Below are positions 1 to 60,200 of a stretch of 64,000 bases of DNA, one piece after another. Source of the stretch: Candidatus Micrarchaeota archaeon (GTDB lineage Archaea > Micrarchaeota > Micrarchaeia > Norongarragalinales > SBBD01); the NCBI GenBank assembly GCA_018819225.1, contig JAHJQN010000004.1, positions 194,813-258,812 of the forward strand, in the 5' to 3' direction. The notes beneath the pieces are model-generated. The model was not told the origin of the DNA and did no database searches. It saw only the letters and a list, made by a program, of their open reading frames with translations. Each line of letters begins with the position of its first letter. Position 1 is the first letter of the stretch. The translations under genes and the position numbers were made by a program.

Positions 1-423
1 TCGATTACTCCTAGTAATAACATCTTTTATCGTTCCCAATCGAACATTTAAATCGGCCTGTTTCCCTTCTCGAATGGCATCTTTGAATGCAATAACTCGC
101 GGATTTTCCATACCGTGATCTCGTAAGTGATCATGAATAGCGGTTAAAACGGAGGACACACGTTCTGACGGAATTCGTGTCAAATGACTTTGTTCTATTT
201 GTAGCAATAGTTGATCTTCAACCATTTTTCCATGAAGGGCGGTCGTAATATCTCTAAAAGTTGCAGATGGAAAAATTTTTCTCATTAGTTTGGTATGCGA
301 CTCTCCATTTCGTCCCAACATTACTATTGGTTCGGTTGGATGCACTATAAAAGTAATGTCTGAAGTCGGGGTCCGAATTAATCGACTGCTTTTCCGAACT
401 ATAATTTCTTCATTCCGATTCAT
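1..423 (-). CDS. hypothetical protein, N-terminal part only (gene continues beyond window start); low-GC
   Basis: Minus-strand reading frame from ATG at 423..421 (MNRNEEIIVRKSSRLIRTP...) runs open to position 1; AT-rich codon usage like neighbouring island genes; no recognisable motif. Confidence 0.4.
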   Translation of the reverse strand, partial: MNRNEEIIVRKSSRLIRTPTSDITFIVHPTEPIVMLGRNGESHTKLMRKIFPSATFRDITTALHGKMVEDQLLLQIEQSHLTRIPSERVSSVLTAIHDHLRDHGMENPRVIAFKDAIREGKQADLNVRLGTIKDVITRSNR

Positions 424-643
424 AATTCCGTTTCTTGTTAAGGGTATTTAAATCAGGCGCTGGGGATGGGAGCAGGAAGAAAAGTTCCGGTCCCTCTCGC
501 AAAAGGAAAGCCCCGGCGGGAACCGACCAAAAAGGTCAAAGCCCTCAATAAAACGACTCGGAAGCGGGAAAAAAAGGCTAAATGAACCTATTCAATAGAT
601 ATACAATAATCAGATCCGCACCATTATTCATTTAAAGCCCTTA

Positions 644-1864
644 ATGAGTATTAAGTTGATGTTAATTGAGCTTCGAATAAAGCCAGGTAAGTTAAAGCTA
701 GTTCGAATGATAAACAAAATTTCTAAAAAATGTCATTTATCAAGTCGAAAAATACACAGAATACCTCACATTACAATATACGGCCCTTTCAAAGGTCGTG
801 GTTCAAATATTCGAAGTATTAATCAGATTTTAGCTCAAATTGGATCAAAATATGGACCATTGGAATTCCAAGTAAAAGGTTTCGAGTGGATGCAGGGCGA
901 GCATGGAAAAGTCATTTACTTCAACATTATACCTTCACCAGATTTAATAAAAATTCAAAAAGAACTTGCGTTTGAATTAAGTACAATTACGCCTAGTAAT
1001 AAAGAATGGGATAAATTTGGAAAATATACATTTCATTCTACTTTAGCATACCGACTAACTGATTCAGAGTTTAAACGCGTTTGGTCTTACGTAAATAGTG
1101 TTCCAAATTTTAAAACTAAAGTATTGAGTTATTTTGGAATTATTAGTCCTGATCGGAAATTTAAAATTAATGATTTTCATTTTCCAATGACTGCGTTCCG
1201 AATTACATTCCTCAACGACTATAGCAAAATCATTTCAGAATATGATTTTGTTACTCATCATATTCTAAATCGTTATGAAGCATTAAACCCAAAAGAATGG
1301 TCTAAAACTTTATGGAAATATCGCATAAATCGCGGAATAGAATTGTCTAACAATATTTCTTCAAAATCCTCTAGCGGACCGTACATAATTAGCGATACTC
1401 ATTTTGGTCATGAAAATATTATCGAGTATTGTATTCGTCCGTTTTCGTCTATTCATGAAATGAATCGAGTACTTATTTCAAATTGGAATCGGATTGTCAA
1501 ACCTAATGATATTGTTTATTTCTTAGGCGATTTATCGTTTGGAAGAAGTAAAAAACCTCCGTCTTATTGGCTAAACCAACTAAATGGAGATATTAGATTT
1601 ATTAGGGGAAACCACGATGACTTAGTTTTGTTAGGGAAAAAACACGAATACATTGATTTTGAAGGGGAAAAAATACTATTAGTACATGATCCAAAAGAAA
1701 AACCAAAAAATTGGAGTGGATGGATTATACACGGTCACAATCATAATAATGATCTTTCACGATATCCTCTGGTAAATAATACGAATAAAACAATCAACGT
1801 TAGCAGTGAACTAATCAATTATTCCCCGATTTCTCTTAAATATTTACTTTCTTTTCGAAAATAG
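644..1864 (+). CDS. 2H phosphoesterase (LigT/2',3'-cyclic phosphodiesterase-like) fused to calcineurin-like metallophosphoesterase
   Basis: N-terminal half has two H-x-T/S-x motifs (HITIYGPF, HSTLAY) typical of 2H phosphoesterases; C-terminal half has MPP motifs DTHFGH, GDLSFGR, GNHDD; AT-rich. Confidence 0.7.
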   Translation: MSIKLMLIELRIKPGKLKLVRMINKISKKCHLSSRKIHRIPHITIYGPFKGRGSNIRSINQILAQIGSKYGPLEFQVKGFEWMQGEHGKVIYFNIIPSPDLIKIQKELAFELSTITPSNKEWDKFGKYTFHSTLAYRLTDSEFKRVWSYVNSVPNFKTKVLSYFGIISPDRKFKINDFHFPMTAFRITFLNDYSKIISEYDFVTHHILNRYEALNPKEWSKTLWKYRINRGIELSNNISSKSSSGPYIISDTHFGHENIIEYCIRPFSSIHEMNRVLISNWNRIVKPNDIVYFLGDLSFGRSKKPPSYWLNQLNGDIRFIRGNHDDLVLLGKKHEYIDFEGEKILLVHDPKEKPKNWSGWIIHGHNHNNDLSRYPLVNNTNKTINVSSELINYSPISLKYLLSFRK

Positions 1865-2979: not shown

Positions 2980-3948
2980 ATGGAAGTATATGAAATAATG
3001 TCAACTCCGCCAATAACGGTTAGATTAACGGATAGTGTACATAAAATTCAAAAATTATTTTACAGGCATAAAATTGCTAGTATTTTTGTCGTTGAAAATG
3101 GAAGAGTTGAAGGGCTAGTTACAAGAAAGAACTTTTTTTCAAGTAAACATTTTCTTAGACACAATTCAACTGCAAAAAATGTAATGACAAGAAACGCATA
3201 TACAATTCATTCAACTGCCGGCGTAGATACTGCTTCGGATTTAATGATTCAATATGGTGTCAATAGTCTTGCTGTAATCAGAAGTGGAAAAATTGTAGGG
3301 GTAGTCACCCGATTTGACTTTAATAAACGCAAACGAGAGCATAATCCGCCAACCTACATTCAGTATACGCCAAATCCGCCATCAAACAATAAAAGTTTTG
3401 GTTTTTATATTTTTATAAGCATTATTTTATTGTATCTAGGCTACACTTTTATCTACCCCATTATTGAATTTAGTAATACTAGTTCAATAGAATTTCTAAT
3501 ACACCAAAAAATCAATTATGAACGCGGTAAATACAGACTTCCACATTTAATGTACGATAGTTCATTACAAAGAACTGCAGACAAGCATAGTATAGATATG
3601 GAAGAAAATAATTTCTTCGACCATATTAATAAACAAGGGAAAGATCCCGCTCAAAGACTCTACGAACAAGGATTCTCGTGTTCAAAACAATACGGTAACC
3701 TAATTTATTCAGGCGTTGGCGAAAATATTGCAAAAGAACCAATTTTTAGCCAAAGGGGATTTTTAGCCATTTTTCCATACGTTATTTGGAACGATAAAGA
3801 AAAAATTGCCTCGGCAACAGTGGAAGGATGGATGAAAAGCCCAAGTCATAGAGAAAATATCTTAACTGCTCATTATTCGTCTGAAGGAATTGGTGTTCAT
3901 AGAAGTACTTTTGGAGAGTATTTCTATATAACTCAAAACTTCTGTTAG
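2980..3948 (+). CDS. CBS-pair domain / transmembrane / CAP (SCP, PR-1-like) domain protein
   Basis: Two CBS-like repeats at N-terminus (VVENGRVEGLVTRKNF; VIRSGKIVGVVTRFDF), central hydrophobic helix (FGFYIFISIILLYLGYTFIYPII), C-terminal CAP signature (HRENILTAHYSSEGIGV...GEYFYITQNF). Confidence 0.65.
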   Translation: MEVYEIMSTPPITVRLTDSVHKIQKLFYRHKIASIFVVENGRVEGLVTRKNFFSSKHFLRHNSTAKNVMTRNAYTIHSTAGVDTASDLMIQYGVNSLAVIRSGKIVGVVTRFDFNKRKREHNPPTYIQYTPNPPSNNKSFGFYIFISIILLYLGYTFIYPIIEFSNTSSIEFLIHQKINYERGKYRLPHLMYDSSLQRTADKHSIDMEENNFFDHINKQGKDPAQRLYEQGFSCSKQYGNLIYSGVGENIAKEPIFSQRGFLAIFPYVIWNDKEKIASATVEGWMKSPSHRENILTAHYSSEGIGVHRSTFGEYFYITQNFC

Positions 3949-4032
3949 ACCGTTTTATATTGAGTAGTTAGGGCATTGTGATATCGTGTTCAAACCCGGC
4001 CTGCGGCATAGACAACGGTATACGGAAAAAAG

Positions 4033-6044: not shown

Positions 6045-6174
6045 AGCCCCCGGCGAGAATCGAACTCGCGACCTCCTGTTTTCTCGCTCTTGCTTTTTTG
6101 GTCGAGCTTTTCTTAAAGAAAAGGTCGGGTGGCAAGGTTACGAGACAGGCGCTCTTCCGCTGAGCTACGGAGGC
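6045..6174 (-). tRNA. tRNA-Thr(CGU) with ~57-nt intron at canonical 37/38 position
   Basis: Reverse complement reads GCCTCCG-TA-GCTCAGCGGAAGAGC-G-CCTGT-CTCGTA[intron]A-ACAGG-AGGTC-GCGAGTTCGATTCTCGC-CGGGGGC-T; acceptor, D, anticodon and T arms all pair; intron 3' region (GCAAGAGCGAG) pairs with anticodon-loop/exon (CTCG..CTTGC) as expected for BHB. Confidence 0.75.
6098..6129. repeat. palindromic T-rich hairpin motif copy 1 (TTGGTCGAGCTTTTCTT-AA-AGAAAAGGTCGGG), inside tRNA-Thr intron
   Basis: 8-9 bp stem CTTTTCTT/AAGAAAAG; same motif recurs at 6204-6240, 7584-7622, 7842-7882. Confidence 0.6.
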
Positions 6175-6203
6175 ATAAATGTTTTTTCAAATGCCCATTT
6201 CAT

Positions 6204-6240
6204 TTGGCGGAGCTTTTCTTTATAAAAGAAAAGGTCCGCG
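6204..6240. repeat. palindromic T-rich hairpin motif copy 2 (TTGGCGGAGCTTTTCTTTATAAAAGAAAAGGTCCGCG)
   Basis: Perfect 9-bp stem CTTTTCTTT/AAAGAAAAG extended by GCGGAC/GCTCCGC; lies between tRNA-Thr and a 21-nt partial copy of its 5' end. Confidence 0.6.
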
Positions 6241-6244
6241 CTTC

Positions 6245-6265
6245 CTTCCGCTGAGCTACGGAGGC
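6245..6265 (-). repeat. 21-nt partial duplicate of tRNA-Thr 5' end (acceptor + D-stem/loop)
   Basis: cttccgctgagctacggaggc identical to 6154-6174. Confidence 0.7.
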
Positions 6266-6304
6266 AACTTTATTTTTTATGAACCGTTTGTTTTAAATGG
6301 CAAT

Positions 6305-6353
6305 GGGGGGTAGGGGCGACCCGCGTAAGGGGAACTCCCCTTGGAGGGGGTCC
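6305..6353 (+). ncRNA. GC-rich structured element copy 1 (GGGGGGTAGGGGCGACCCGCGTAAGGGGAACTCCCCTTGGAGGGGGTCC)
   Basis: Two hairpins (GGG-GCGA-CCC GNRA-like; AAGGGGA-AC-TCCCCTT); second copy at 48061-48108 with two compensatory base-pair changes in the second stem. Confidence 0.45.
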
Positions 6354-6520
6354 TGGGGTGCGGAGGCATTCTGACAACAAAATGCGCATTGTTTATGGAC
6401 GGCTTTTGTTTAAAAAAACGTTGGATACTGGATCCGGGGATGCAACCAGACATTTAATAATATTCAGGCGCTCTTTTCAATCGTATTTCACGAACGAAAT
6501 CAAGGGAGGCTGATAAACGG

Positions 6521-7433: not shown

Positions 7434-7557
7434 GGGCCCGTAAGAGAAACCATCTCCGGGACGCTCAGCTTGGATAGAGCGATTGCCTCCTAATCACTCG
7501 CGGATTGCAAGTGGAGGGGAAAGCAATAGGTCGTGGGTTCGAATCCCACCGGGCCCG
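7434..7557 (+). tRNA. tRNA-Arg(CCU) with ~29-nt anticodon-loop intron and an unusual 20-nt insert between acceptor 5' strand and D stem
   Basis: GGGCCCG...[20 nt]...GCTC-AGCTTGGATA-GAGC-G-ATTGC-CTCCTA[intron]A-GCAAT-AGGTC-GTGGGTTCGAATCCCAC-CGGGCCC-G; acceptor strands complementary; canonical T loop. Confidence 0.6.
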
Positions 7558-7583
7558 CTTAATGCCAGTTCCCGTGGTTTCAT

Positions 7584-7634
7584 TGGTCGAGTTTCCTTCC
7601 CAAGAAAGGTCGTTCAGAATCCCGACCGGGCCCG
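7584..7634 (+). repeat. hairpin motif copy 3 plus degenerate partial copy of tRNA-Arg 3' end (GGTCGTTCAGAATCCCGACCGGGCCCG)
   Basis: TTGGTCGAGTTTCCTTCCCAAGAAAGGTCG followed by T-arm-like + acceptor-3'-like sequence sharing ACCGGGCCCG with tRNA end at 7547-7556. Confidence 0.55.
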
Positions 7635-7673
7635 TATATTAATTAAACTTGTTTTCCTGCAACCTATACCATT

Positions 7674-7790
7674 GCGGAGGTCGCATAGTGGCTATTGCGG
7701 CAGCCTGCTATCTTTTTGCAGCGAAGGCTGCGGAAGGTTGGAAAGCTGTTGGCGCTTCGCGCCTCGTGGGTTCGAGTCCCACCCTCCGCG
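7674..7790 (+). tRNA. tRNA-Ser(GCU), class II with long variable arm and ~16-nt intron
   Basis: GCGGAGG-TC-GCAT-AGTGGCTA-TTGC-G-GCAGC-CTGCTA[intron]G-GCTGC-variable arm (GGCGC-TTC-GCGCC)-GTGGGTTCGAGTCCCAC-CCTCCGC-G. Confidence 0.75.
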
Positions 7791-7841
7791 CTCAATAATG
7801 CGGTCGTTGGATACCATGGAACATATGGGTAACCGGTTTCT

Positions 7842-7897
7842 TTGGTCGAGCTTTCTTTACAAAGAAAGGTCGTTCGGAATCCTTACCCTCCGCGCTA
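7842..7897 (+). repeat. hairpin motif copy 4 plus degenerate partial copy of tRNA-Ser 3' end (GGTCGTTCGGAATCCTTACCCTCCGCGCT)
   Basis: TTGGTCGAGCTTTCTTTACAAAGAAAGGTCG (8-bp stem) then sequence sharing ACCCTCCGCGCT with tRNA-Ser 3' end. Confidence 0.55.
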
Positions 7898-7943
7898 TTA
7901 ACAGTTATGGATTGCGCGTAGGTTAATCATACAGGTAAAGCAA

Positions 7944-47749: not shown

Positions 47750-48055
47750 ATGAACCGCGCTCGCATCAAACTCGAAAGCAAGGAATACACGGACTTGGAC
47801 GCGGTCTGCGTTCAAATCAAGGATATTGCCAGGAAAGCGGGCGTTGAGCTCAAGGGACCCATTCCACTGCCGACAAAAAAACTTCGCATCTCTACGCGGA
47901 AGACGCCGTGCGGGGATGGAAGCGACACGTACGAAAAGTGGGAAATGCGCGTGCACAAGCGCTTGATCGAGATCAAGGCAGACGACCGCGTGCTGCGCGA
48001 CATCATGCGCATCCGCATTCCTGATAGCGTCCACGTCGAAATGCTTCTAAACTAG
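47750..48055 (+). CDS. rps10: 30S ribosomal protein S10
   Basis: RIKLESKEYTDLDAVCVQIKDIARKAG...THKRLIEIKA typical S10; tuf-rps10 adjacency. Confidence 0.9.
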   Translation: MNRARIKLESKEYTDLDAVCVQIKDIARKAGVELKGPIPLPTKKLRISTRKTPCGDGSDTYEKWEMRVHKRLIEIKADDRVLRDIMRIRIPDSVHVEMLLN

Positions 48056-48060
48056 TTTAC

Positions 48061-48108
48061 GGGGGTAGAGGCGACCCGCGTAGGGGGTGGAACCCCCTGG
48101 AGGGGTCC
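48061..48108 (+). ncRNA. GC-rich structured element copy 2 (GGGGGTAGAGGCGACCCGCGTAGGGGGTGGAACCCCCTGGAGGGGTCC)
   Basis: Same architecture as 6305-6353; second hairpin AGGGGGT-GGA-ACCCCCT carries two compensatory pair changes relative to copy 1. Confidence 0.45.
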
Positions 48109-48114
48109 GCAGAT

Positions 48115-48168
48115 ATCATGCGCATCCGCATTCCTGATAGCGTCCACGTCGAAATGTTGCTTAACTGA
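48115..48168 (+). pseudogene. displaced duplicate of the S10 gene 3' end (last 17 codons + stop)
   Basis: 41 nt identical to 48003-48043, then ATG TTG CTT AAC TGA versus ATG CTT CTA AAC TAG: same peptide IMRIRIPDSVHVEMLLN* with synonymous changes only; out of frame with rps10. Confidence 0.7.
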
Positions 48169-48198: not shown

Positions 48199-48735
48199 CT
48201 ACTTCTTTTCGTTCATCAGCTTCTGGACGACATCATCCGACGTCGTGAAGCGGGCAAACTTTTCAGACTCCTTGACCTCCACGGCTTTCTTTCCCGCTTT
48301 TTTCTCGGGAGTCCTCGAGAAATAGAAGAGCAACGTTGCCGCGGAAACGGAGAACAATAGGAGTGAAAGCGTGAGGTTCAACTGGGCTTTCGAGCCCATT
48401 CCTAACGGTTCCTCCTCCTCACCCAAAATGTCATTTAACTGGGATTGCGCCTCCACGAGCTTGTCATACGCTTCCTGCTGTCGTCCCTGCGCTTTCAATA
48501 GTTTCGCGTGCGCCAGCAACACCTCCACTTCCGTTATTTGCTCGCCGCTATCTTTTGCCGCGCGTATAGCGGATTCGACTTCCACTTGCGTTTCCTGAAG
48601 CTCTTCAGCAGTCAACGCCCCCGTCAATGAAAGGCGACCTCCTCCAGGAGTTGCAATATACGCGTCATAGATCAAATAGAGTCCTGCAAATGAGGAGAGG
48701 AAGAAGAATATCAGCACGACGCTTTTGACGTTCAT
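48199..48735 (-). CDS. membrane protein with N- and C-terminal TM helices and coiled-coil/TPR-like middle
   Basis: Hydrophobic segments at residues ~6-24 and ~115-135; last gene of the giant-protein co-directional set. Confidence 0.45.
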   Translation of the reverse strand: MNVKSVVLIFFFLSSFAGLYLIYDAYIATPGGGRLSLTGALTAEELQETQVEVESAIRAAKDSGEQITEVEVLLAHAKLLKAQGRQQEAYDKLVEAQSQLNDILGEEEEPLGMGSKAQLNLTLSLLLFSVSAATLLFYFSRTPEKKAGKKAVEVKESEKFARFTTSDDVVQKLMNEKK

Positions 48736-48739
48736 GGCC

Positions 48740-49357
48740 TTACCCGCACTCGAGTGTTGAAATCATGTAGTCGGCTAGCTCCAAATCAGGGGCCAGCGGT
48801 TCAGAGATCGCTGCCGTGAACACGATCCAGTAGCTCGGGCACTCGTAAAACGCCTCTCTAACGAAAATAGTCTGGCCATCTACTGCTAGCTCGTCGTTTT
48901 CAATGGTAGTCATGTAGAGTTTGCGGCCGCGCTGTTCATATTCCGTCAATACGACGCCTTCACTTGTTGCTGACGCGCGAATCAATTGAGGAGTGAGTTC
49001 GTCTGGTCTCAAAATGCGTAGATCCATGATCTCGGATGAAAACGGGGGATAGAATGCCGCAATTCGCAAACGAATCGTGAATGCGGGTTCTAATTGAATG
49101 GAATACCCAACGGGATAACGAATGCGGTACCCGTAATCAGGATCGTAATAGGAAATGGTTTTTGATGCATATTTTTCATCCAGTTTCGGTAATTGTTCCA
49201 AACGCATCTCCTGAACAGACTCTGTGGCAACCGGAATGCGCTCCACCAGTTGTTGAGGAGCAGTATAAAGAGAGTAAGCAAAATAACCAAACACAATAAC
49301 CAACACAACCACTAGGAATACGTTCAAGAACGCTGAGGTTTTATGTTTCAAAGGCAT
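48740..49357 (-). CDS. N-terminally anchored membrane protein with extracytoplasmic domain
   Basis: TM FLNVFLVVVLVIVFGYFAYSL then 175-aa soluble domain; 4-nt gap to next gene. Confidence 0.45.
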   Translation of the reverse strand: MPLKHKTSAFLNVFLVVVLVIVFGYFAYSLYTAPQQLVERIPVATESVQEMRLEQLPKLDEKYASKTISYYDPDYGYRIRYPVGYSIQLEPAFTIRLRIAAFYPPFSSEIMDLRILRPDELTPQLIRASATSEGVVLTEYEQRGRKLYMTTIENDELAVDGQTIFVREAFYECPSYWIVFTAAISEPLAPDLELADYMISTLECG

Positions 49358-49405
49358 TTATGGATCCCTTATCGAAAAGTCATAATGTAATTGTTGGTAA
49401 TAAAA

Positions 49406-49681
49406 CTATCTTCTCACTTCAAACGAAGAAAAAGAACCCGTTGGTTCTGAATACGTCACGGAAGCATCTTGGACGTGCACGTAACCATCTTGAATCTTAA
49501 TCGCATCAACTAAATGCTTCAAAGCGTTTTCCTCTCCCTCCGCTTGGATTTCCACACGGCCGTCAGACAAATTCCTTACAAAACCTGCTACTGGAAAACG
49601 AGCTGCAATGCGTAAAACAGAATAACGATATCCAACTCCTTGAACGCTCCCCGAAACAATAACATGAACCGCTTTATTCAT
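49406..49681 (-). CDS. acyP: acylphosphatase
   Basis: VSGSVQGVGYRYSV...GFVRNLSDGRVEI acylphosphatase signatures. Confidence 0.8.
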   Translation of the reverse strand: MNKAVHVIVSGSVQGVGYRYSVLRIAARFPVAGFVRNLSDGRVEIQAEGEENALKHLVDAIKIQDGYVHVQDASVTYSEPTGSFSSFEVRR

Positions 49682-49692
49682 TTTCTCACGCG

Positions 49693-50496
49693 TTACTCAT
49701 GATGAACAGGGGGCATATGTTGTTGTAATAACCGCATTAATTCTTCATTCACTCCTCTTTGAATGCGCGCGGTCCCCCTTCCTTGCTGACGAGCCTCCTG
49801 ACTTGCCGCTAAATTTCCGATTTCATGCTGAGCCGTGTTCAATTGCTCTAACATTCTTTTAAGTACTCGATTGCGTTTATAAACTTCTAAAAACGATTGA
49901 CCCATCTCGACCCCGTGATTATTGATTATCGATCGTACGTTACGACGAACAGTAAAGAAATTGGTTTTACCCACAAAGGCGTTAACGAGATACGATTGGT
50001 TCTGGTGAGCACGACTTCTTACGGGACCCAAATCCGCTTGAACCGCTGCCTTGAACAAATCAGGATTTCTACGCAAATTTCCAGCGATTTCCGAATACTT
50101 GTCCACGATGCGCTGAACTTCCGTTAATTGGGTTCCTCGAAGTCCATGAAGTGCGCGTTGAAATTCAGCTGCGCGGGAAGCAAAATACTCGTAATCGCCT
50201 GCCGCCATTCGACTCGCCTCATTCACGTGATGCTCAGTACCAAACGTACGACCTAGACCTCGAAACATCTGGTTGTGAAGGGCTTGCCACTCTTCATTCG
50301 TGCTTGCTATGCTGTGCAAATCATGTTGAATGACGCTTCGGCGACGTCTCCCGAACCCGAAAAGCCTTCCGAGACGGCCAAAAACTCCCGTACGCGATTG
50401 CGGCACCTCCATTTCTTCCGTGTGCAACTTCAACCGCGTCGGTGGACGCGCCCCTTCTTCAAGGGGGCCATGATACTGGACCCGTGCTCTAGCCAT
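49693..50496 (-). CDS. hypothetical alpha-helical protein downstream of giant gene
   Basis: 267 aa, no TM, Arg/Gln-rich helical; 10-nt spacing to neighbours. Confidence 0.45.
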   Translation of the reverse strand: MARARVQYHGPLEEGARPPTRLKLHTEEMEVPQSRTGVFGRLGRLFGFGRRRRSVIQHDLHSIASTNEEWQALHNQMFRGLGRTFGTEHHVNEASRMAAGDYEYFASRAAEFQRALHGLRGTQLTEVQRIVDKYSEIAGNLRRNPDLFKAAVQADLGPVRSRAHQNQSYLVNAFVGKTNFFTVRRNVRSIINNHGVEMGQSFLEVYKRNRVLKRMLEQLNTAQHEIGNLAASQEARQQGRGTARIQRGVNEELMRLLQQHMPPVHHE

Positions 50497-50506
50497 ATCG
50501 AATCAC

Positions 50507-51190
50507 TTACGGAGCGGCCCCTCCTCCTGCAGGCGGAATTCTTCTAGAGCGTAGCTTCCGCATCCTTGAATCGCTTTGTTGGGCATATGCGCGAAGTAAA
50601 TCCAAAGCTTCTCGAGCAGCATGCCTTCTTGGAATTTCTGCGTTAATGCTTCGAGCCAGCAAATCAGGATTCTCAGTTAAAAATTTCTCTACCGTATGTC
50701 CGGAATATTCTTCACTTCGACCCGAATCCACCAATCGTTTAGCAATGGCATTGGCTCGGCTAGTAAATACCTGCTGAAAATGGCTATAACGAGTGGCCGG
50801 CAAACGTCGACTCACCATGACCTCGTGAAGTGCAGCTAAAGTTTCTCTACGCGGATCGCCGTGTCGAAGCTCATCACGCATACTCTCAATAGTCATATGA
50901 TCTCCCGCCACCCATGCACGCAGGACGTCCATGGTACGCCGCGTTTTTATCATATCTCGACGCGATCCAAAAACAGTTTCAACAACGGGCTCCAGATTCA
51001 TAGCTGGTTCTCGAGCAATTTTCTGAAGGACCGGTAATATCTGAGATTGATGCACAGTTGGATCCGTATTCAATAACTCTCTTGCTTCTTTAAAGGGATA
51101 AAGTGCTCTCCGTTTACCTCGTGCGCTTAGTTCTCCTTCCCGAGAGATCATTCGTTCACGCATTTGTTTCGGACCGGAAGGGGTCGCCAT
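50507..51190 (-). CDS. hypothetical alpha-helical protein immediately downstream of giant gene
   Basis: 227 aa, no TM, Arg-rich; 11 nt after giant-gene stop. Confidence 0.45.
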   Translation of the reverse strand: MATPSGPKQMRERMISREGELSARGKRRALYPFKEARELLNTDPTVHQSQILPVLQKIAREPAMNLEPVVETVFGSRRDMIKTRRTMDVLRAWVAGDHMTIESMRDELRHGDPRRETLAALHEVMVSRRLPATRYSHFQQVFTSRANAIAKRLVDSGRSEEYSGHTVEKFLTENPDLLARSINAEIPRRHAAREALDLLRAYAQQSDSRMRKLRSRRIPPAGGGAAP

Positions 51191-51201
51191 TCTACTTCAC
51201 C

Positions 51202-54200
51202 TCATGGTTCAATGGGAACTCCTGCGGATTGTCGCAGGGTGTTCAATGCTTCAGGATACTTCGTATCATCAAACTGTTTTTGCGCCACAGGAATCGCGTC
51301 TTCCACAGCCTGCGGGCATCCATCGTTGATACACCATTCGCGGAAACGCTTTAATAAAGCCTCCACTGCCTCTTTCGGCGATGCTGGAACCAAAGTCACT
51401 GCGTTCGTAACCGTTGCACCCGTGACCGTCGTGAAAACAGGTGAACGGAAGTCCAGTGGATCCGAGTAAGAATGAACAAGAGAAGGATCGGGAACAAACG
51501 AAGAGGCAACAGGAACATTAGGATCAAACATCGACGTAATGAAATAATCAGGGGACACTCCTTTGTTGAAAGAGGTCACTAAATTGTATTGAGGAATTCC
51601 GGCCAAAACCGTTCCTTCAGTAAGATAAAGGCACGCGTGTTCGGAATCCGGACACAATTCTTCCGTGTCCACCCGGTTCGCGCATTCATTCAAATCCTTT
51701 TCATTGCGGAAACAGTATTCTTTCATGGAAGCGGCTTGGCCTTCCTCATTATGGTATACGACGAGATGGTTCCCGAAACGGTAATCCAATTCAGCGCGCA
51801 CGGGACGCACTTCCGTGTAAAACAGCAAGGGCGCAACCAGTGATCCTATCAAGCTGATACCCCGGAAACTTTTCTTTGTAAACGACGACTCCTTAACTGC
51901 GTTCCCAACGGAGCGGAAACGTCCGGAGCGGGAACGAACCGCATCGAAATCATCGGCAAGCGTTTTGGATGCTTGTTCAACGGCATCGTCGAATTTAGTC
52001 AGGGTTCTAGCTTTCGTGGCGCGATCGCGTACGTGCTCAATGATTGCGCGTTCTTCCGTATTTGTCAATGCGCCACCCAAAGCATTCCGCAGTTTACCGT
52101 TCAATGAAGTGCGAACAAATCTGCCACTTCCGCCTTTGATTTCATTGACGGCCACTTCATCGTAATTGCGCAATACGTTTGCAAGTTCGTCGGGGGTGAG
52201 AATGCGTCTGAAATCGAGGTCAATAGGTCCTGCAGTTTGAGAATATAATTTCCATAATTCATCCGACACCGCTGACGGTCGGGCATCGCTCCTAAGGAAA
52301 GCAGATAACGTTTCCGATTTTCCATATAAATTATAATTTGGAGGCAGACGATTATTAATTAATTCATCCACTACTTTTTCTCGTATATTTGGATCCCTAT
52401 CAAGGGCGGTGAATAAACTTCTAATCTTGGTATTGAATTGATCTTGCGTCGGGGCTATTGTCCGAGATACGTCGGTGAGTTCATTATAGAGCGTCGTACG
52501 AGTTCCGGGTGCGGTAAGATCCACCCAGGCATTCATTCGCGCCCGTCCGTCCGCTCCAGAAAGGAGTTGAGTGAAATCATTGACGCTGCTTCTTGGCACA
52601 AGAGCAGTTTCTCCCGGGGTATGAATCAAGTTGACGAGCGCACGAGAAATCGTTGAGGAACTAATCGTGCCGCCGGCTGTTTGGGTATAACGAGTGACCA
52701 AAGCGTCCGCGAATTCAAGCGACATGCCTTGGTGCATGAAGTAATCGGTCATAAACGCTCGGCTGCCGAACGGACGGAATACTTTGGAAGCGCCCGCCAC
52801 AATGGGAACCGTAGCAGGAGTAATACCTGGTGCGAACTCGCTATCTAGGACCGTATTCGAGCCTCCGAGAATGGCACTTAATGCACCAGTAACCGCCAAA
52901 TTACCGATCAATTCATTACCTCCTCGACGTGCCACCTGACTGGCAAATGTACTAGAGAGTAAGCCGCTGGCTCCAGTTATTGAATTGACTCCAGGAACAG
53001 CACCGGTTGGAAGAACCAAGTTAAGATAGAAATCAGTTAGAGCAAATGTTTGGAACGAAATACATGCATTGATTCCTTCGCATATTCCGACGCGTGAAGG
53101 CGCAAGGGAATCAACGGCAATGGATGCGGTACAACCCGTGATTCCGGTAACCAAGCTGTAAACGCCCTGCGCAAGACGAGGGGCGAATACGGGAGCGGCA
53201 AAAATGCTTCCGACAATTGCGACTAATGCGCCCGGAGCACCAGCTAATAATAATGCACCGGTTGCTTTTCCTCCGTTTTCAATGCAGGCACCCGTATCTT
53301 CGAATGGAACCGCCTGTGATAAGGGGTAATCGTTGTATCCGTAAAGGGTGTTCAACAGCAAATCGGCGTGCCGTTCATCATCCGCGCTGGGCGCTTCGCG
53401 GTATGGACCAATAGAGAATATGCGGAATTTTTCAAAAAATCCAGTATCCCCTTCCCGTTTCTTATTGGTCCAAATAATGTGCGGATTCGGTTCTCTTCCA
53501 ATGATGACTTCCGGCGTGTCCGCGGTCAACAGGTTCGTGTTGTACAATTTTTCCTCGCATGCAAGAAAACGAGTTGGAGAAGGCAAAGAGCTGTCCACAT
53601 GCATTTCAATGAATGAAGATTTCAACCACTCCTCCTTATTAGGTCGTAGCTCACATAGACCCAGGCGCGCAGTTGCAATGTAAATACCGCATTGATCGGC
53701 AGTACCCGTTGCAGTATATTTGATTGATTTCTTGCCGCCGACAAAACCGAATTCACCTAAACCTTCTTGGAAAGCGGTTTGAAGATCGTTCAAATTGATT
53801 TTCGTGTTCGCCATTTGAACGACAACGCTTTTACGGTAATCGCGGTTGAATGCGCGAACAACGGGATCGGATGGATTGCAGAACTTATTGAGCTCTTCAT
53901 TGAATTTTTCGTCTTCTTGTGTATAGAAGGTTGTTATGAGTTGAGCCACTTGTGCTCCGAATCCCTTGAAAGCTGCTTTCGCCTCATCTGCAGTGCAGAA
54001 GTTTGTGGAACAGGGTATGACCGCGTCAGCCACTCGAATAATCCCTGACGGAACAACAGAAACTGGAGTGGTTGGAGCACTTGCAGGCGGAACAGATGGT
54101 GCAGAATGTGCCGGCACTGCTGGTGCGGGTGTTCCCGGGGGCACACCACTCGCAGGCGTTAATGATGGAGGCATAGCGGGTGGATCGCGGAGTATAAGAT

Positions 54201-57200
54201 CCCCAAGCGGTGTGCCGGAAAAGAGGTTTTTCATAGCAGGGTTCGCGGGATCGATTTCATACGATTCAACATTTACGAACTTGGAGTCCGTTTTTCCGTT
54301 GATGGATCCTTTGAACTTGATCTCCATGTATCCACTCCACGGGCGCAGAGACTCGCATTCTGAAATATAGCCTTCTCCGGCACGCAACGAAGTGGGAATG
54401 TCGCATCGTAAGAAACCGGTTCCGTTAGCGGAATAGGTTTGATAGTTAAGCGTCACCGACTCATCGAGATTGTTGGCCATGGAAATCCATCGCTTGTGAC
54501 CCAAATCCTTGAACACCAGTTTTTGGGGCGCCGTGGTTTTCACGTTTTGTTGCGAGCGGTCATAATTTACGTAGAAACCACCCAGCGCGTCTCGAAGTTG
54601 AGCGCGAAGAGAGCCTACGCACGAACCGGTTTTCTCGAAGGTGAGAATCAGTTTAGCGGGAACGAATTGCGCGCCGCTTCCCCGGTAATCATAAAATATT
54701 TTGACGTCGCCTTCCAAGGGACCGAGTTCATCCAACTTCTCTTGAGGCAACAAACAGCCATCATCATCCGTATACTGTTGAGGTACTTGAACCGAGAACA
54801 AGAATTGCTGCACCTGGCAAGCCGCATCCTCATTCTTATCCTGTTGGGCTTTACCCGCCAGAATCATGTGCGCGCCTTCATCCCAAGCGCTGGGTTTGCG
54901 AATCTTTCGAATCACGCCCTCCAACTCGGAACTAATGGACTCGCCAGAAAGCGCGTTACGGCTTTCCGCAGTCCAGCTCTTCTCGTCCTCATCACCGGAA
55001 ATATCCATGTAAACGCTTACTTCCGAAGGAGCGTCATTCAATACGCAGAATCCTTTCTCCACGATTCCTTCCACGTTCGAATCCGTGAACTCAAAGGTTT
55101 GCTCCTTGGGCTTGATGCGAATGGGCACGAAATTATCGGTAATCATGGCGAAGCCATCCGGATTGCGGGATGGACGCTCGCATAAAATCAAGGTAGTCTT
55201 CGAATCGGCGGGAACGGAGATCTGCTGGGGTTCGTCCTTCTCTTTCGGAAACGGATTCATGTCAGAGAACCAAATCTCTTTCACTTGAGGCAATTGATAA
55301 CTCGTTTCGCCGCGGACATTGATTTGTATTTCGCGGCACCCCTGCAAGTCAACGCGTTTCGTCATGCTATGGATTTCCGTGCTCACCTCCGGCGCGTCCT
55401 CAGGCAATAAGTATACGACGTCATCCGTGAACGTGGCGTGGAACTTGTATTTCTTGTCCGTATCCTGGCAGATGCGCGTCACGAACCGCGTGTCGACCGG
55501 AATGGAGAACGTGACCGCGTCTTCCGTTTCATCCGCTTTTTCGACGTCATCCGCCATCAAACGCATGCCATTGAATTCAAACAAATCATTCTCCGCGTTG
55601 TCTTCCATTGCGAGCTCCGTGCAAATGCTCAAGCGGTAAGACTGCATGATGTCGCCATTCTTTTCGAACGGTTCCTCAAGGAACTTGTCGAATGTTTCTT
55701 GCGGAACATTCACGTCCACATCATTCGGGAAGTGATGAAAAACAAAGTCAACGCCTTGCAAGCCCGCAAGGTCCTCATCGATCATGACGAACGTGATGGG
55801 AACATTGCGTTCCACGAACAAATCCTTGTACGGTTCAGCGGCTTGCAATACCGGTCGGAAGGGAAGCTCAACGTTGTAACTGTACGTCGTAACCGCGTTC
55901 TTGACCACGCGGGCGTTCACCGGAAAGTGCAAGACGACATCCTGCGGGAACGTGACCGTAAAGCGGTCCTCCCCGAAGCGTTGTTCCTCTTCCTGTAACA
56001 TGCTGTAATCGAATACGATGGACACGGATGGCGGTACTTTGAGGTCGCGGCGTTCGCCGAATTCCTCATCTTCAATCGAAGCGCCTTTGACGAGCATGCG
56101 TTGGTTGGACGGGAATTCTAACAGATGGCGGTCATCCTTTACGCTATAGCGCGCGTTGACGTTGAACGGCAACGTCATGTCGAAACCGACTGGCAAGCGC
56201 TTTTCATTACCCGTCATGCCAAAGTCAGGGCGACCGAAAATAATTTGAGTGAGAGGCATGACTTCGACCGTCCGGGAACCGTCCGGCGCTTTCAAGCCCG
56301 CACGAGCGACTCCGTTCAAGAAACTCATTTCCAGGTAATCCGTGGAAATGCTTTTCGCGCGCACGCCATCCGGAGCAATATTCAAGGATACTTCAGGGCC
56401 GTCGCGTACCAAGAATAGGACGCGGAAAGGCAGGCTCAGAACGATCTCGCCGTTATAGGTTCGTAATGCGAACGGCGATGGAATGCGCAAGGCACTACCG
56501 GCTGGAATCGTGACGCGTTTGAAATCACGCGCGTCCATTGAAATAATGGCATCGGAAGGCAACGAAATCGTGTTTCCGCTTTGGAATTGAAGGGCTTTTC
56601 CTCCGCTAAAACTGTCTTTCTTGACGCGAATGAATTCCTCGATGATGAACGTGGCTTCAACGGGGAACTCGACTTCTAAAGCGTCTTGAGAGGAAATGAT
56701 GGGCGTCAACGAAATCTGAATGGGTTGGTGCGCGTTGACGCGGACGCGGCGTTCTTCACCCGAATAGGGGCGATATTGAGTGGAACTCGTCGGGTACTTG
56801 ATGTCGAAATCGTTGATGGAAGCCGTTTCAAAAGCCCCTTCGCGAGCAAACTCGGTTTCCGTTGGGAAATCGAGGTATACGACGACGGGCAAGCGGAGTT
56901 CCCAACCGTATTGCATGAAGTTGCGCTGGTAAGGCGATAGGTAACTACGGTACGTATTGTAACCTTGCACGGGAATGCGTCGCGCATAGCGGGCGGGAAC
57001 TTCAAAGAAAGCGCCGGAAGGAATGACGGCCACTAGACTGCCGCCTCCTTGCTCGATGGAAAACGTGAAGGTGCTCGAGTAAGGCGAGGATTGTTGCAAA
57101 TCGTTGAGATCTCCCACGCGAACGTCTGCATCAAACAGCATGGTGTCCCCGCTCGGAAGCTCAATGAAAGTCGAGCCATCCGGATTAGTATGCGTAAGCG

Positions 57201-60200
57201 TATTGGGAGGCAATTGCAAGACGATTTGCATGGGAAGCGATATGCGCACGCCTCCACTCACGCTTTTCACTTCGGGTTCGACGGCTTGGCAAGTGTGATC
57301 AATGGCGGCCTCGCTTTCTCCGCATTCGAGGAACTCGCACACTCCCGAAGAACAGATTTCATCATTGGAACATTCATCATCGGCAACACAGCCGGGTTCA
57401 GGGGTCGGAGTGAACGTGACTCCTGCCGGATAGATTTCCACGCGAGTGGAAAGGCAAGCGAGATTGCCGGCTTGTGCGCGAACCTCGTAACGACCCTTCG
57501 AACTGTAGTAACAGGAGGCCGTGCAGCTACCCGTGGTTCCCGTGCAACTCACGGCATTGGATGTGCGGCCGTTACCGCAATTTACGACAACGACGTTTGG
57601 GGCGCGATTCAAGTCATAATAGTCAACAGTAATGGTACTCGTCCCTTCTTCCTCAATGCGGTTCGGATCCGCATTTAATGCACAAGTGGGTACTAACGGA
57701 GTGGGAACCGGAGTCGGCGTCACGAATTCCGTTGGTTCGGGAGTTGACGTCGGATCCTCATCGCCCGCATGCACGTCCCTGCAATTTTCGGATGAAGACG
57801 CGGTATACGTAAGTCCGACGCGCTTGCGGGACGTGATTCCGAGCGTGCTCGCGTAAAGCGTTAATGTACCGTCGCGTTCATCGTCCTCTAGATCGCACGG
57901 ATCCACGGGATACGCGCGCGCCACCACCTTAAATTCCGCTGAATCCCCTGCGGCAATGGTTTGCGAAAGCGGTTCCATGTATACGTTGGAGAGCGTGCTC
58001 TGGTAATTGATGAGAATGGGATAATCGGCGTCGTTGGTAACGACCATGGTTTGCGTGTCACGGGGTTCGCGAGGCGGTTTCAAGGTAAACTGCAGGGAAT
58101 CAGCTGAAGCAGACCACAACGCCTCCAAGTCCTGTTGGGTAAACGAAGAGGCGATCGTGAACGGAACGGATTCCTCTTGGTCGTAGCTGCCCAAGCGAGC
58201 TCGTACGAGGAGGCGGCCGGAAACGGTTTCGGATAGAGTGTTCGCACGAGCTGCAACGGGCAAAATAGTATCGAGAATGCGGGCTCGCAAATTGATGGAT
58301 TGGGTATCGCGCGCTTTCAAACGGAAGGAGGAAAGGTCGACGGATACGTCCGTATACTGGGGGTTGCGTCCAAACTGCATTTGAACGGAAACGCGTACTT
58401 CATTATCCAATAGGTTAGTGACGCTGAAACCTTGTTCTTGATTGTCGGTCGAATCAACGGTTAATGACAAGGTTTCCCCTTCCACGGAAATGAGTTCATC
58501 GCCAGTGACGCGCAGGAAACCGCGTTTGACCTTAAAGCCTTCGGCCTCGACCTGGTAGGTGACGGTCCCGATCGCGACGGGGTGAATGCCTTCCACGCGG
58601 TACTGGGCACTGCCATCCCGACCCTCGGAAAAAACGCCTTCAATGATGGCGCCGCGGAGGGCATCATTCCCGTTTCCAACGGATACGTAGGCATGAGAAA
58701 CCGGCAGCCCCAATGAATCTTCGACGGCAAACGTCACCATGTTGTCTTGAAGTGCTTGCAATGAAGACGGACGATTCGTCACTTTGAGATCGGGTTTGGT
58801 GCCGACCACGCGGACGTACAGCGAACGAGTGATCACGGTTTCCGCGTTGCGTACTTGAAGCTGCAATGCCACGTCATTCGAGAGACGCTGGGCTTGAATC
58901 AAGAACTGGCCTTCCGCATTGTCTTCAGAAGTCGTAATAGTGATCAGTTCCTGATCGCCTGCGGAACGCGCCACCGCGCGACTTCCACCGGATGAACCTT
59001 CCGTTAACGTGATCGATTCGTCGAGAGCAGATGAAGAAAGCTCGACCACGGTTCCTCTTGGAGCCGCTACGTGGAATTGAAGCGAAAAGGTTTCGCGAAT
59101 TTCCGCCTCATAATTATCCAAAGCGCGCCCATTTTGTCCTTCGAAGAAGTAATCCAAACAAAGATCGTCTTCACATAATCCACCAAATGAAATGGGTGCG
59201 GTAATCGTTTTCATGTTCGCGAGAATGGAAGATGTCGAAGCGGTTTCGTCGAGGGGATCGCGAAGGGTTTCGCGCGCGGTGTCGAAAGCCGAACGGTATT
59301 GCAACATAGCCGTTCCATCGGAAACCGCTTTGGTTCGCACAAACACCGCGATTTCCTTCGTGCCTTCAAACGGTTGGAACGTGAAATGAACGTATTTATA
59401 CGCGGGCTGGAATTCCGGATCCGCGAACTCCAATTCCTCCGCAGGCGTCGGGGAAGGCGTTTCCGTAGGGACATCCGTAACGATAACGGGGGACAAATCG
59501 TATAACGTTCCTTTTGTGACGAAAGCCGTGCCGGCTTCGTAACCAACGATTTCAACGAGCTCGTTATCCAGCGAAGAATCCGCTGAACCGACGCGCACGT
59601 GAACTTCAGCCCTTGAAACGTCGACATTGGGGCGAGTCAACAAGAATTTGGCTTTGTAAACCGTTGAAGGCGATAACGAAGAGGCTTTGTTGCTCTTCAA
59701 ATCATACAATCCCTGGAAAACGATTTGCGATCCTCGGGCGCCGGAAGGCAGCAGTTCAAACGAATCCCGATTCGTGATCCCGGGAATGACTTCAAATTCA
59801 GACGATAGCAAGGTTTCATACCCTTCCAGGGAAACGCGAGCAACATAAAACCCTTCCAAGATATCCACCGCGCATTTACCGCGTTCCGTGACGCACGAAT
59901 CCTCTTTAATAAACGTTCCGCCGGAAAACGATAATTCAACGAGGGCACCATCCAGAGATTGATTCGTAAAGTAATCATAAACGGAGACGACGAGCTTGGC
60001 TTTTCCGGGCTGCAAGATCACTTCAATCAAGTTGACTTCAGGTTCTTCCCCGGTTCCGTCAATCGAAATCAATTCCGGATTACTTTTTCCTTCCCGGCCC
60101 GCGAAACTGGCTTTGACAAAAATGCGTTCCAACGGAACATCGGGAAAATCAGCGGATCCATCGGCGGACGTGAACTTTTCGGAGATGCCCATGGGTTTCC

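Follow-up and report, generated by a model that had tools for sequence, protein, structure and literature searches.

Between 6.0 and 7.9 kb of the window, by which we mean the whole 64,000-nt stretch of a Candidatus Micrarchaeota contig that was analysed (GCA_018819225.1, JAHJQN010000004.1, positions 194,813 to 258,812), lie three intron-containing tRNA genes, tRNA-Thr(CGU), tRNA-Arg(CCU) and tRNA-Ser(GCU). ARAGORN found no tRNA in the window because of the introns, whereas the Rfam covariance models identified all three genes, although tRNA-Arg was matched only from 7458 as its 5' intron splits the acceptor strand. The 3' ends of tRNA-Arg and tRNA-Ser, the 5' end of tRNA-Thr and, some 40 kb away, the 3' end of rps10 are each accompanied by a second copy of the same terminus, with a hairpin between the gene and its copy (Table 1).

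Table 1. Features of the window at the three tRNA genes and at rps10 (positions are those of the window; R1 is the covariance model of hairpin E).
Position	Strand	Feature	Support
6045..6174	-	tRNA-Thr(CGU) with an intron of about 58 nt at the canonical position; the intron carries an E hairpin	Rfam tRNA 54.2 bits, with a 60-nt insert after the anticodon; in the fold the E hairpin is at the apex of the intron
6098..6128	+	E hairpin copy 1 (TTGGTCGAGCTTTTCTTAAAGAAAAGGTCGG), inside the tRNA-Thr intron; the tRNA-sense RNA carries its reverse complement	Pattern match; R1 50.8 bits, E=1e-10
6204..6239	+	E hairpin copy 2; outer helix co-varied (GCGGA/TCCGC) with the G.G mismatch kept	R1 22.8 bits, E=0.001; fold -28.3 kcal/mol, z=-3.8
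6240..6266	+	Copy of tRNA-Thr positions 1 to about 27 (reverse complement), joined directly to the 3' end of E copy 2	22 nt exact plus flanks; alignment score 24, 0/1000 shuffles
6305..6353	+	F hairpin copy 1 (GGGGGGTAGGGGCGACCCGCGTAAGGGG...GGAGGGGGTCC)	Pattern GGCGACCCGCGTARGGGG matches twice in the window against 0.08 expected; fold
6354..6369	+	Third, degenerate copy of the tRNA-Thr 5' end (TGGGGTGCGGAGGCAT), directly after F copy 1	Repeat search, 82% identical to 6160-6176; weak on its own
7434..7557	+	tRNA-Arg(CCU), introns after about position 9 and at 37/38; T-arm and 3' end intact (functional proximal copy); last bases TTCGAATCCCACCGGGCCCG	Rfam tRNA 32.2 bits from 7458; 5' acceptor strand GGGCCCG at 7434-7440 read from the sequence; orthologues in relatives L117 and L118 have the same layout
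7558..7582	+	Spacer between tRNA-Arg and E; part of the insert or a decayed part of the duplication, origin undecided	No significant similarity to the flank after the distal copy, P=0.71
7583..7612	+	E hairpin copy 3	R1 41.7 bits, E=2e-8; exact pattern match
7613..7634	+	Distal, decaying copy of tRNA-Arg positions 54-73 (TTCAGAATCCCGACCGGGCCCG)	Alignment score 17, 0/1000 shuffles; no tRNA model match at E<=1
7674..7790	+	tRNA-Ser(GCU) with a canonical intron; 3' end intact (functional proximal copy), ending TTCGAGTCCCACCCTCCGCGCT	Rfam tRNA 44.2 bits
7791..7841	+	Spacer between tRNA-Ser and E; contains a small hairpin (ACCATGGAACATATGGGTA)	Inverted-repeat search; no significant similarity to the flank after the copy
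7842..7872	+	E hairpin copy 4	R1 51.5 bits, E=8e-11
7873..7896	+	Distal, decaying copy of tRNA-Ser position 54 to discriminator +2 (TTCGGAATCCTTACCCTCCGCGCT)	Alignment score 15, 0/1000 shuffles; degenerate counterpart at the same place in relative L117
47996..48055	+	3' end of rps10 (gene 47750-48055, Pfam Ribosomal_S10); proximal, functional copy of the duplicated segment	Pfam match
48061..48108	+	F hairpin copy 2	Pattern match; fold -29.8 kcal/mol
48109..48168	+	Distal copy of the last ~58 nt of rps10, including a stop codon; 93% identical over 55 nt	Repeat search; alignment score 48, 0/1000 shuffles

A sequence-only reading of the region had claimed that tRNA-Arg and tRNA-Ser are each followed, about 90 nt downstream, by a degenerate copy of their own 3' half with exact cores of 10-12 nt and a T-arm-like stretch, that a hairpin repeat sits between gene and copy, and that the same pattern occurs at tRNA-Thr and rps10. 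Failure of such copies to exceed chance expectation when all tRNA loci are analysed had been put forward in advance as grounds for discarding the claim, and we examined this for the three tRNAs and rps10 of the window by local alignment of each gene end against its own downstream 150 nt. The maxima of 1000 dinucleotide shuffles were 13 (Arg), 12 (Ser), 13 (tRNA-Thr 5' end) and 16 (rps10), so that none reached the observed scores of Table 1, and among 658 windows of 30 nt sampled along the 64 kb only 2 reached a score of 14 or more. Absence of the repeats from raw reads had likewise been named as a way in which the claim could fail. However, an independent Logan assembly from another sample (SRR6514730_8796) carries identical sequence, beginning inside the Arg hairpin (window 7586) and ending inside the rps10 repeat (about window 48031). 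Chance similarity, for which only the shortness of the exact cores speaks, and assembly artefact are refuted by these data. The observation is real.

Two details of that reading needed correction. The copies are not tRNA halves, as each comprises only the last ~22 nt of the tRNA (22-24 nt), from T54 in the T-loop to the discriminator, lacks the 5' strand of the T-stem and cannot fold as a tRNA part. No tRNA model (RF00005) matched 7577-7636 or 7836-7898 even at E<=1. In addition, the AGGTCG that makes the copies resemble fuller T-arms is the 3' end of the hairpin, is identical in the Arg and Ser copies, and is not derived from each tRNA; tRNA-Ser has no such sequence. The copies also differ from the split-tRNA 3' halves of Nanoarchaeum and Caldivirga, with which they share a 3' tRNA fragment preceded by a structured leader, in that the 5' strand of the T-stem and everything upstream of it are missing, no complementary 5' half was found, and a complete gene lies immediately upstream.

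Each tRNA copy is joined directly to the 3' end of a conserved hairpin that we term E, with the consensus TTYTT-TTGGT-CGA(G)CUUUU...AAAAG(G)UCG. E is about 35-40 nt and consists of a short T-rich lead, TTGGT, and a hairpin with a 3-5 bp outer helix, a conserved G.G mismatch, a C-G pair plus four U-A pairs, and a variable apical stem-loop. A covariance model of E found exactly four copies in the window, all on the + strand and all at the three tRNAs. The rps10 gene carries a different hairpin, F, and not the same repeat; the only other copy of F in the window is that followed by the third copy of the tRNA-Thr 5' end. No Rfam 15 family matched E or F at the gathering score or at E<=1, the only nearby match being a sub-threshold YrlA hit (19.8 bits against a gathering score of 69) spanning the tRNA-Arg T-arm and E. 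Literature searches for the hairpin sequence and for related concepts found no description of this element.

To determine how widespread E is, we scanned one genome per GTDB species with an exact 20-base pattern, an approach that only partly characterises the true breadth of the family and its bacterial membership. The scan returned at least 119 matches (loci are designated below by L and a number), of which 99 have the same stereotyped hairpin; by our arithmetic about 28 chance matches are expected in the whole collection. The matches come from Woese-, Nano-, Micr-, Iain- and Altiarchaeota, Methanosarcinales, a thaumarchaeon and the isolate Haladaptatus litoreus, and also from Gaiellales/Actinomycetota and Clostridia MAGs, in which the apical stem is GC-rich like the host genome. 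The apical stem is maintained by compensatory changes (71 double-change cells against 20 in shuffles, 0/500), and the outer helix co-varies while the G.G mismatch is kept in window copy 2 and in variants in L052 and L117. Positions -5 to -1 are conserved as TTYTT. Copies within one lineage share a lineage-specific apex at non-homologous loci, for example the four copies of the window, and L016, L052 and L111 next to three different tRNAs, which implies copying within genomes.

In other genomes the right end of E abuts a copy of the sequence that lies to its left, as in the window, and eleven of 47 strictly filtered copies exceeded the 99th percentile of the control. The duplicated segments are tRNA 3' ends starting at G53/T54 (L022, L032, L041, L062 and L085), a tRNA-Thr 5' end (L006), and protein C-termini with their stop codons (L071, L074, L087 and L064), the distal copy overlapping the end of a convergent gene in the first two. 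L021, in the same MAG as L117, has a protein start on the other strand, and L086 has a bacterial gene start whose left copy forms an upstream ORF through E. In L067 the 5S rRNA end lies in a tandem [X-E]x3 array in which the duplication includes 27 nt beyond the gene and runs right up to E. As a background control, of about 115 metagenomic tRNA genes with the same 3' end, mostly from unrelated organisms, only two (L193 and L184) showed a hairpin plus a 3' copy.

Two further contexts were found. The last G of E is tRNA nucleotide +1 in L016, L025, L052, L111 and L115. In many DPANN tRNAs the intron begins exactly with the reverse complement of E, and its 3' end carries a degenerate copy of the last 8-12 nt of exon 1. 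E also sits in an insertion in a 16S rRNA gene (L050). The +1 position suggested that E might be a promoter, but we rejected this as the hairpin length varies from 27 to 39 nt, leaving no TATA-like box at a fixed -26, and as E also occurs in bacteria and in introns.

Comparison with relatives for presence or absence of the inserts had been proposed beforehand as a test of the insertion idea. Orthologous loci were reached through the neighbouring flippase-like gene. L118 (53% amino-acid identity in the neighbouring protein) has both tRNAs but neither hairpin nor copy. L117 (59% identity) has none at tRNA-Arg, which instead carries a T-loop intron after TTCGAA, and has a degenerate hairpin plus CCCTCTGCGCT at tRNA-Ser. 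L119 has a 120-nt T-loop intron in tRNA-Ser, also after TTCGAA. The inserts are therefore gained and lost on the time scale of these lineages, and at least one of them is old, although no empty and filled sites were available in near-identical genomes, so that the duplication was never seen being created. The persistence of the degenerate hairpin and copy in a relative as distant as L117 could also mean retention by selection rather than a decaying relic.

Together, these data led us to favor, with moderate confidence, the insertion of a short, non-autonomous hairpin element accompanied by a long target duplication, the simplest model that fits all contexts. In this view, the insertion at tRNA-Arg and tRNA-Ser joined the 3' end of E (GGTCG) to position 54 of the tRNA gene, so that the segment from position 54 to the tRNA 3' end now lies on both sides of the insert; the proximal copy would remain part of the working tRNA, while the distal copy would be non-functional and accumulating indels. 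The same process would have placed E next to the copy of the tRNA-Thr 5' end and F next to the copy of the rps10 3' end. Our analyses demonstrate the anatomy, the family character of E, the flanking duplications in many genomes and the absence of the inserts in relatives, whereas we infer that the duplication is generated by the insertion event itself, through staggered breaks 8-60 bp apart that are filled in, and that only those insertions survive whose duplication restores a gene end, as at tRNA-Arg, tRNA-Ser, tRNA-Thr and rps10, or, inside RNA genes of archaea with a broad-specificity splicing endonuclease (PMC3239211), in which the element plus one copy can be removed as an intron. Positions 53/54 and 59/60, known intron sites in ARMAN-2, coincide with the left boundary of the copies here. 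The interpretation offered by the sequence-only reading, a genome-wide mechanism of integration/excision or gene conversion at gene termini, is thus supported in part: an insertion process at gene termini is the best explanation, but nothing points to gene conversion or to excision, and "genome-wide" was not examined, as only 64 kb of the 709-kb contig was analysed.

Several observations sit uneasily with this model. Duplications of 8-58 nt (about 22, 24, 27-34 and 58 nt in the window and 8-49 nt elsewhere), sometimes longer than the insert, are unusual for known prokaryotic transposases. The spacers between gene and hairpin in the window match neither the post-copy flanks nor one another significantly, which gives no support to the spacers being part of the duplication and leaves the exact limits of insert and duplication undefined. 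No transposase, integrase, recombinase, reverse transcriptase or Cas1 was recognised in the window, and no enzyme could be linked to E; a Cas1/casposase-like integrase acting at palindromes, or target-primed synthesis, would both give long and variable duplications.

Cas1-type integration next to the tRNA T-loop palindrome is the closest mechanistic analogue (PMC5137440). It occurs at the 3' end of a tRNA gene with the T-loop region as recognition element, the target duplication overlaps the tRNA end, and two nucleophilic attacks a fixed distance apart followed by gap fill naturally give a duplication as long as or longer than a spacer-sized insert. However, casposons are kb-scale, have terminal inverted repeats, Cas1 and PolB, and give a fixed 14-15 bp duplication, whereas E is a single hairpin with no coding capacity and variable duplications; the genome outside the window was not examined for a Cas1-solo gene. 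Like MITEs and REP-like repeats, E is short, non-coding and multi-copy, with a conserved base and variable apex, a conserved short motif 5' of an imperfect palindrome (as with the GTAG of REPs) and a presumed dependence on a trans-acting enzyme. MITEs, however, give short duplications of fixed length, REP and IS200/IS605 hairpins give none, and E spans two domains of life and is tied to gene termini and introns. As to the terminal inverted repeats of MITEs, the only inverted repeat of E is the hairpin itself, with unequal arms and TTGGT unpaired, an arrangement that does not settle the comparison either way. E does not form a CRISPR array, as its spacing is irregular and the "spacers" of the tandem arrays in L067 and L033 are copies of one another. 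A retroposon with an A-tail is not excluded but is without supporting evidence, since the T-rich run 5' of E is a fixed 4-5 nt conserved motif and not a variable tail, and gene 5' ends on the opposite strand are also duplicated. DGR VR/TR pairs were rejected because the differences between copies are not adenine-specific and the repeats are too short, and comparison by eye with the consensus features of hammerheads, K-turns, group II domain V and integron attC showed that none fits.

The closest descriptive analogue is the att-site scar, in which a tyrosine-integrase element (SSV- or pNOB8-type) would have integrated with its crossover in the T-loop, reconstituted the tRNA with its own copy of the 3' end, displaced the host copy downstream and later been reduced to the hairpin-bearing stub. 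Direct repeats of the terminal 20-45 nt of tRNAs, beginning in a stem-loop of the tRNA and following or preceding an intact, reconstituted gene, are well documented at the borders of integrated archaeal elements, for example the 44-bp repeat of SSV1, and have been linked to intron gain and tRNA fragments, as in Caldiarchaeum (PMC3293823). The window has such direct repeats on both sides of the inserted DNA, the distal copies always begin at the T-loop, which is a palindromic arm-loop-arm site, and in two young cases (L111 and L193) identity stops exactly at the discriminator base, which fits an element-borne gene end as well. Nevertheless, we consider this explanation unlikely. The DNA between the repeats is only 55 nt at tRNA-Arg and 82 nt at tRNA-Ser, is similarly short (a 30-90 nt hairpin stub) in more than 20 independent loci, and contains no integrase fragment or kb-scale element. 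The same hairpin adjoins several tRNAs, 5S rRNA, and protein starts and stops, which a fixed attP cannot explain, and the L067 array does not fit. A viral or plasmid origin of E also found little support, as its pattern had a single hit in IMG/VR.

Local tandem duplication or replication slippage at a pre-existing terminator-like hairpin, without a mobile element, appears very unlikely. Palindromes are hot spots for template switching, and tandem [X-E]n arrays exist (L067, L033). However, slippage would give X-E-X-E or X-X-E and not the recurrent X-E-X', and it does not explain a conserved hairpin base of more than 20 nt shared by archaeal and bacterial phyla at non-homologous loci, or its absence from relatives that keep the tRNAs.

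We also considered that the hairpin and copy are a functional proto-intron or alternative 3' exon, with read-through pre-tRNA spliced by the broad-specificity endonuclease from position 53/54 to the distal copy, or are retained for processing or termination. Micrarchaeota (ARMAN-2) have introns at 53/54 and 59/60 and an epsilon2 endonuclease that cuts relaxed BHB motifs (PMC3239211). The T-loop introns of the orthologous tRNA-Arg in L117 and tRNA-Ser in L119, and the persistence of the hairpin and copy in L117, are consistent with this possibility, T-loop introns that contain E end with a T-loop-like copy (GGTTGGGAAAG|TCC), and the tRNA-Ser distal T-stem strand CUUAC can still pair with GUGGG through G.U pairs. 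Such a role is not excluded but is doubtful, as the proximal 3' ends are perfect and no splicing is needed, the tRNA-Arg distal copy would give a T-stem mismatch, and the same architecture occurs at protein genes and in bacteria, which have no BHB splicing. The two 3-nt bulges and 4-bp helix of a BHB were present in outline in the fold of the tRNA-Thr intron that contains E, while none was evident in minimum-free-energy or constrained folds of the proximal-to-distal segments of tRNA-Arg and tRNA-Ser; without a dedicated BHB search, these folds do not decide the matter. Folds comparing whether the acceptor 5' strand prefers the distal copy were ambiguous.

The element has practical consequences, as it breaks short-read assemblies, hides tRNA genes from standard finders, and creates pseudo-termini and upstream ORFs that can mislead annotation. 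Its wider relevance concerns non-canonical archaeal tRNA introns, for which published models invoke integrative plasmids or an unexplained "intron transposition" (Thermoproteales, ARMAN-2). That work describes similarity among introns of different tRNAs without an insertion signature, whereas here, at the same positions (53/54, D-loop, anticodon loop) and in the same lineage, the same element also lies outside genes with flanking duplications, which suggests DNA-level insertion. Within one 2-kb stretch the same small hairpin is found both as the core of a tRNA intron and as an extragenic insert flanked by duplicated tRNA termini, and related genomes show it opening introns at the D-loop, anticodon loop and T-loop and lying in an insertion in 16S rRNA. 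If the hairpin is mobile, intron gain becomes directly testable through population polymorphism, splicing assays and a search for the enzyme. Tentatively, we speculate that E and F belong to an undescribed class of cross-domain mobile hairpins that insert with long, variable target duplications, and that in archaea with a permissive splicing endonuclease an insertion inside a tRNA or rRNA gene becomes a spliceable intron, beginning exactly with the element and ending with a copy of the exon-1 terminus. If this speculation is correct, it would be a concrete DNA-level mechanism for the gain and "transposition" of non-canonical archaeal introns, and the gene-end duplications seen here would be the same event landing at a gene boundary.

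A second hairpin family, which we termed F, was identified in the window and has the form GGGGGTAG(A/G)GGCGACCCGCGTA...GGAGGGGTCC. The F hairpin has a conserved base with a 3x3 internal loop and a compensatory apex, although its distribution outside the window was not examined. Each of the two F copies is followed by a copy of a gene terminus, these being the rps10 3' end and the tRNA-Thr 5' end.

The tRNA-Arg(CCU) gene was found to have an intron after about position 9, between the acceptor stem and the D-stem, in addition to the canonical intron. This intron is conserved in two relatives (loci L117 and L118), the first of which adds a third intron in the T-loop. A sub-threshold Rfam match to YrlA (Y RNA-like; 19.8 bits against a gathering score of 69) spans the tRNA-Arg T-arm and the E hairpin, and is probably due to the tRNA-like part. 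Separately, TTGGTCGAGC resembles a D-loop/D-stem (TTGGTAGAGC) and AGGTCG resembles a variable loop plus the first T-stem base, a resemblance for which we have no explanation. In addition, an ORF 4 kb from the tRNA cluster encodes a fusion of a 2'-5' RNA ligase / 2H phosphoesterase domain with a metallophosphatase domain, an enzyme type that acts on 2',3'-cyclic phosphate RNA ends. The window also contains a giant ORF of 3453 aa with only faint Ig-like/CarboxypepD_reg hits, which is probably a surface protein, and several ORFs neighboring it have no Pfam match.

Features of the window and of other loci, with their coordinates
Sequence	Position	Strand	Feature
Window	644-1864	+	Fusion of a 2'-5' RNA ligase / 2H phosphoesterase domain with a metallophosphatase domain
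Window	6305-6353		F hairpin copy, followed by a copy of the tRNA-Thr 5' end
Window	7434-7557		tRNA-Arg(CCU)
Window	7508-7619	+	Sub-threshold Rfam match to YrlA
Window	48061-48108		F hairpin copy, followed by a copy of the rps10 3' end
Window	48199-51190		Several ORFs with no Pfam match
Window	51202-61563	-	Giant ORF
L117 (relative)	1613-1759		tRNA-Arg(CCU)
L118 (relative)	314-431		tRNA-Arg(CCU)
L050 (Methanosarcinales MAG)	about 7680-7716		E hairpin in a 16S rRNA gene
L193 (high-GC archaeal metagenome contig)	3617-3990		tRNA-Arg 3' end, present three times

Other genomes showed the E hairpin, or a hairpin like it, in further contexts. In the Methanosarcinales MAG, E lies in reverse orientation inside an insertion of about 135 nt in a 16S rRNA gene, within the GGATTAGATACCC region, and this insertion is probably an rRNA intron. 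In Gaiellales/Actinomycetota (loci L024, L068, L082, L086 and others), E sits 0-12 nt upstream of start codons, often inside a short upstream ORF whose stop overlaps the start of the real gene (e.g., cmk, tpiA, tsaD). The AAGG in the 3' arm of E is placed like a Shine-Dalgarno sequence in these bacteria, which suggests translational coupling. In Clostridia MAGs (loci L014, L038, L042, L063, L073, L080 and L105), an E-like hairpin is the first module of a longer intergenic repeat of about 150-250 nt that is built from several hairpins (GGTCGAGGGCAGCGCCCTCGTC, GCTCTCCGCAGAGAGC and others) and has no Rfam match.

The three occurrences of the tRNA-Arg 3' end in the high-GC archaeal contig L193 comprise one intact gene, one perfect 22-nt copy and one 15-nt copy. 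Each copy is preceded by a GC-rich hairpin that is unrelated in sequence to E. The phenomenon of a hairpin accompanied by a terminal copy may therefore be broader than the E family.
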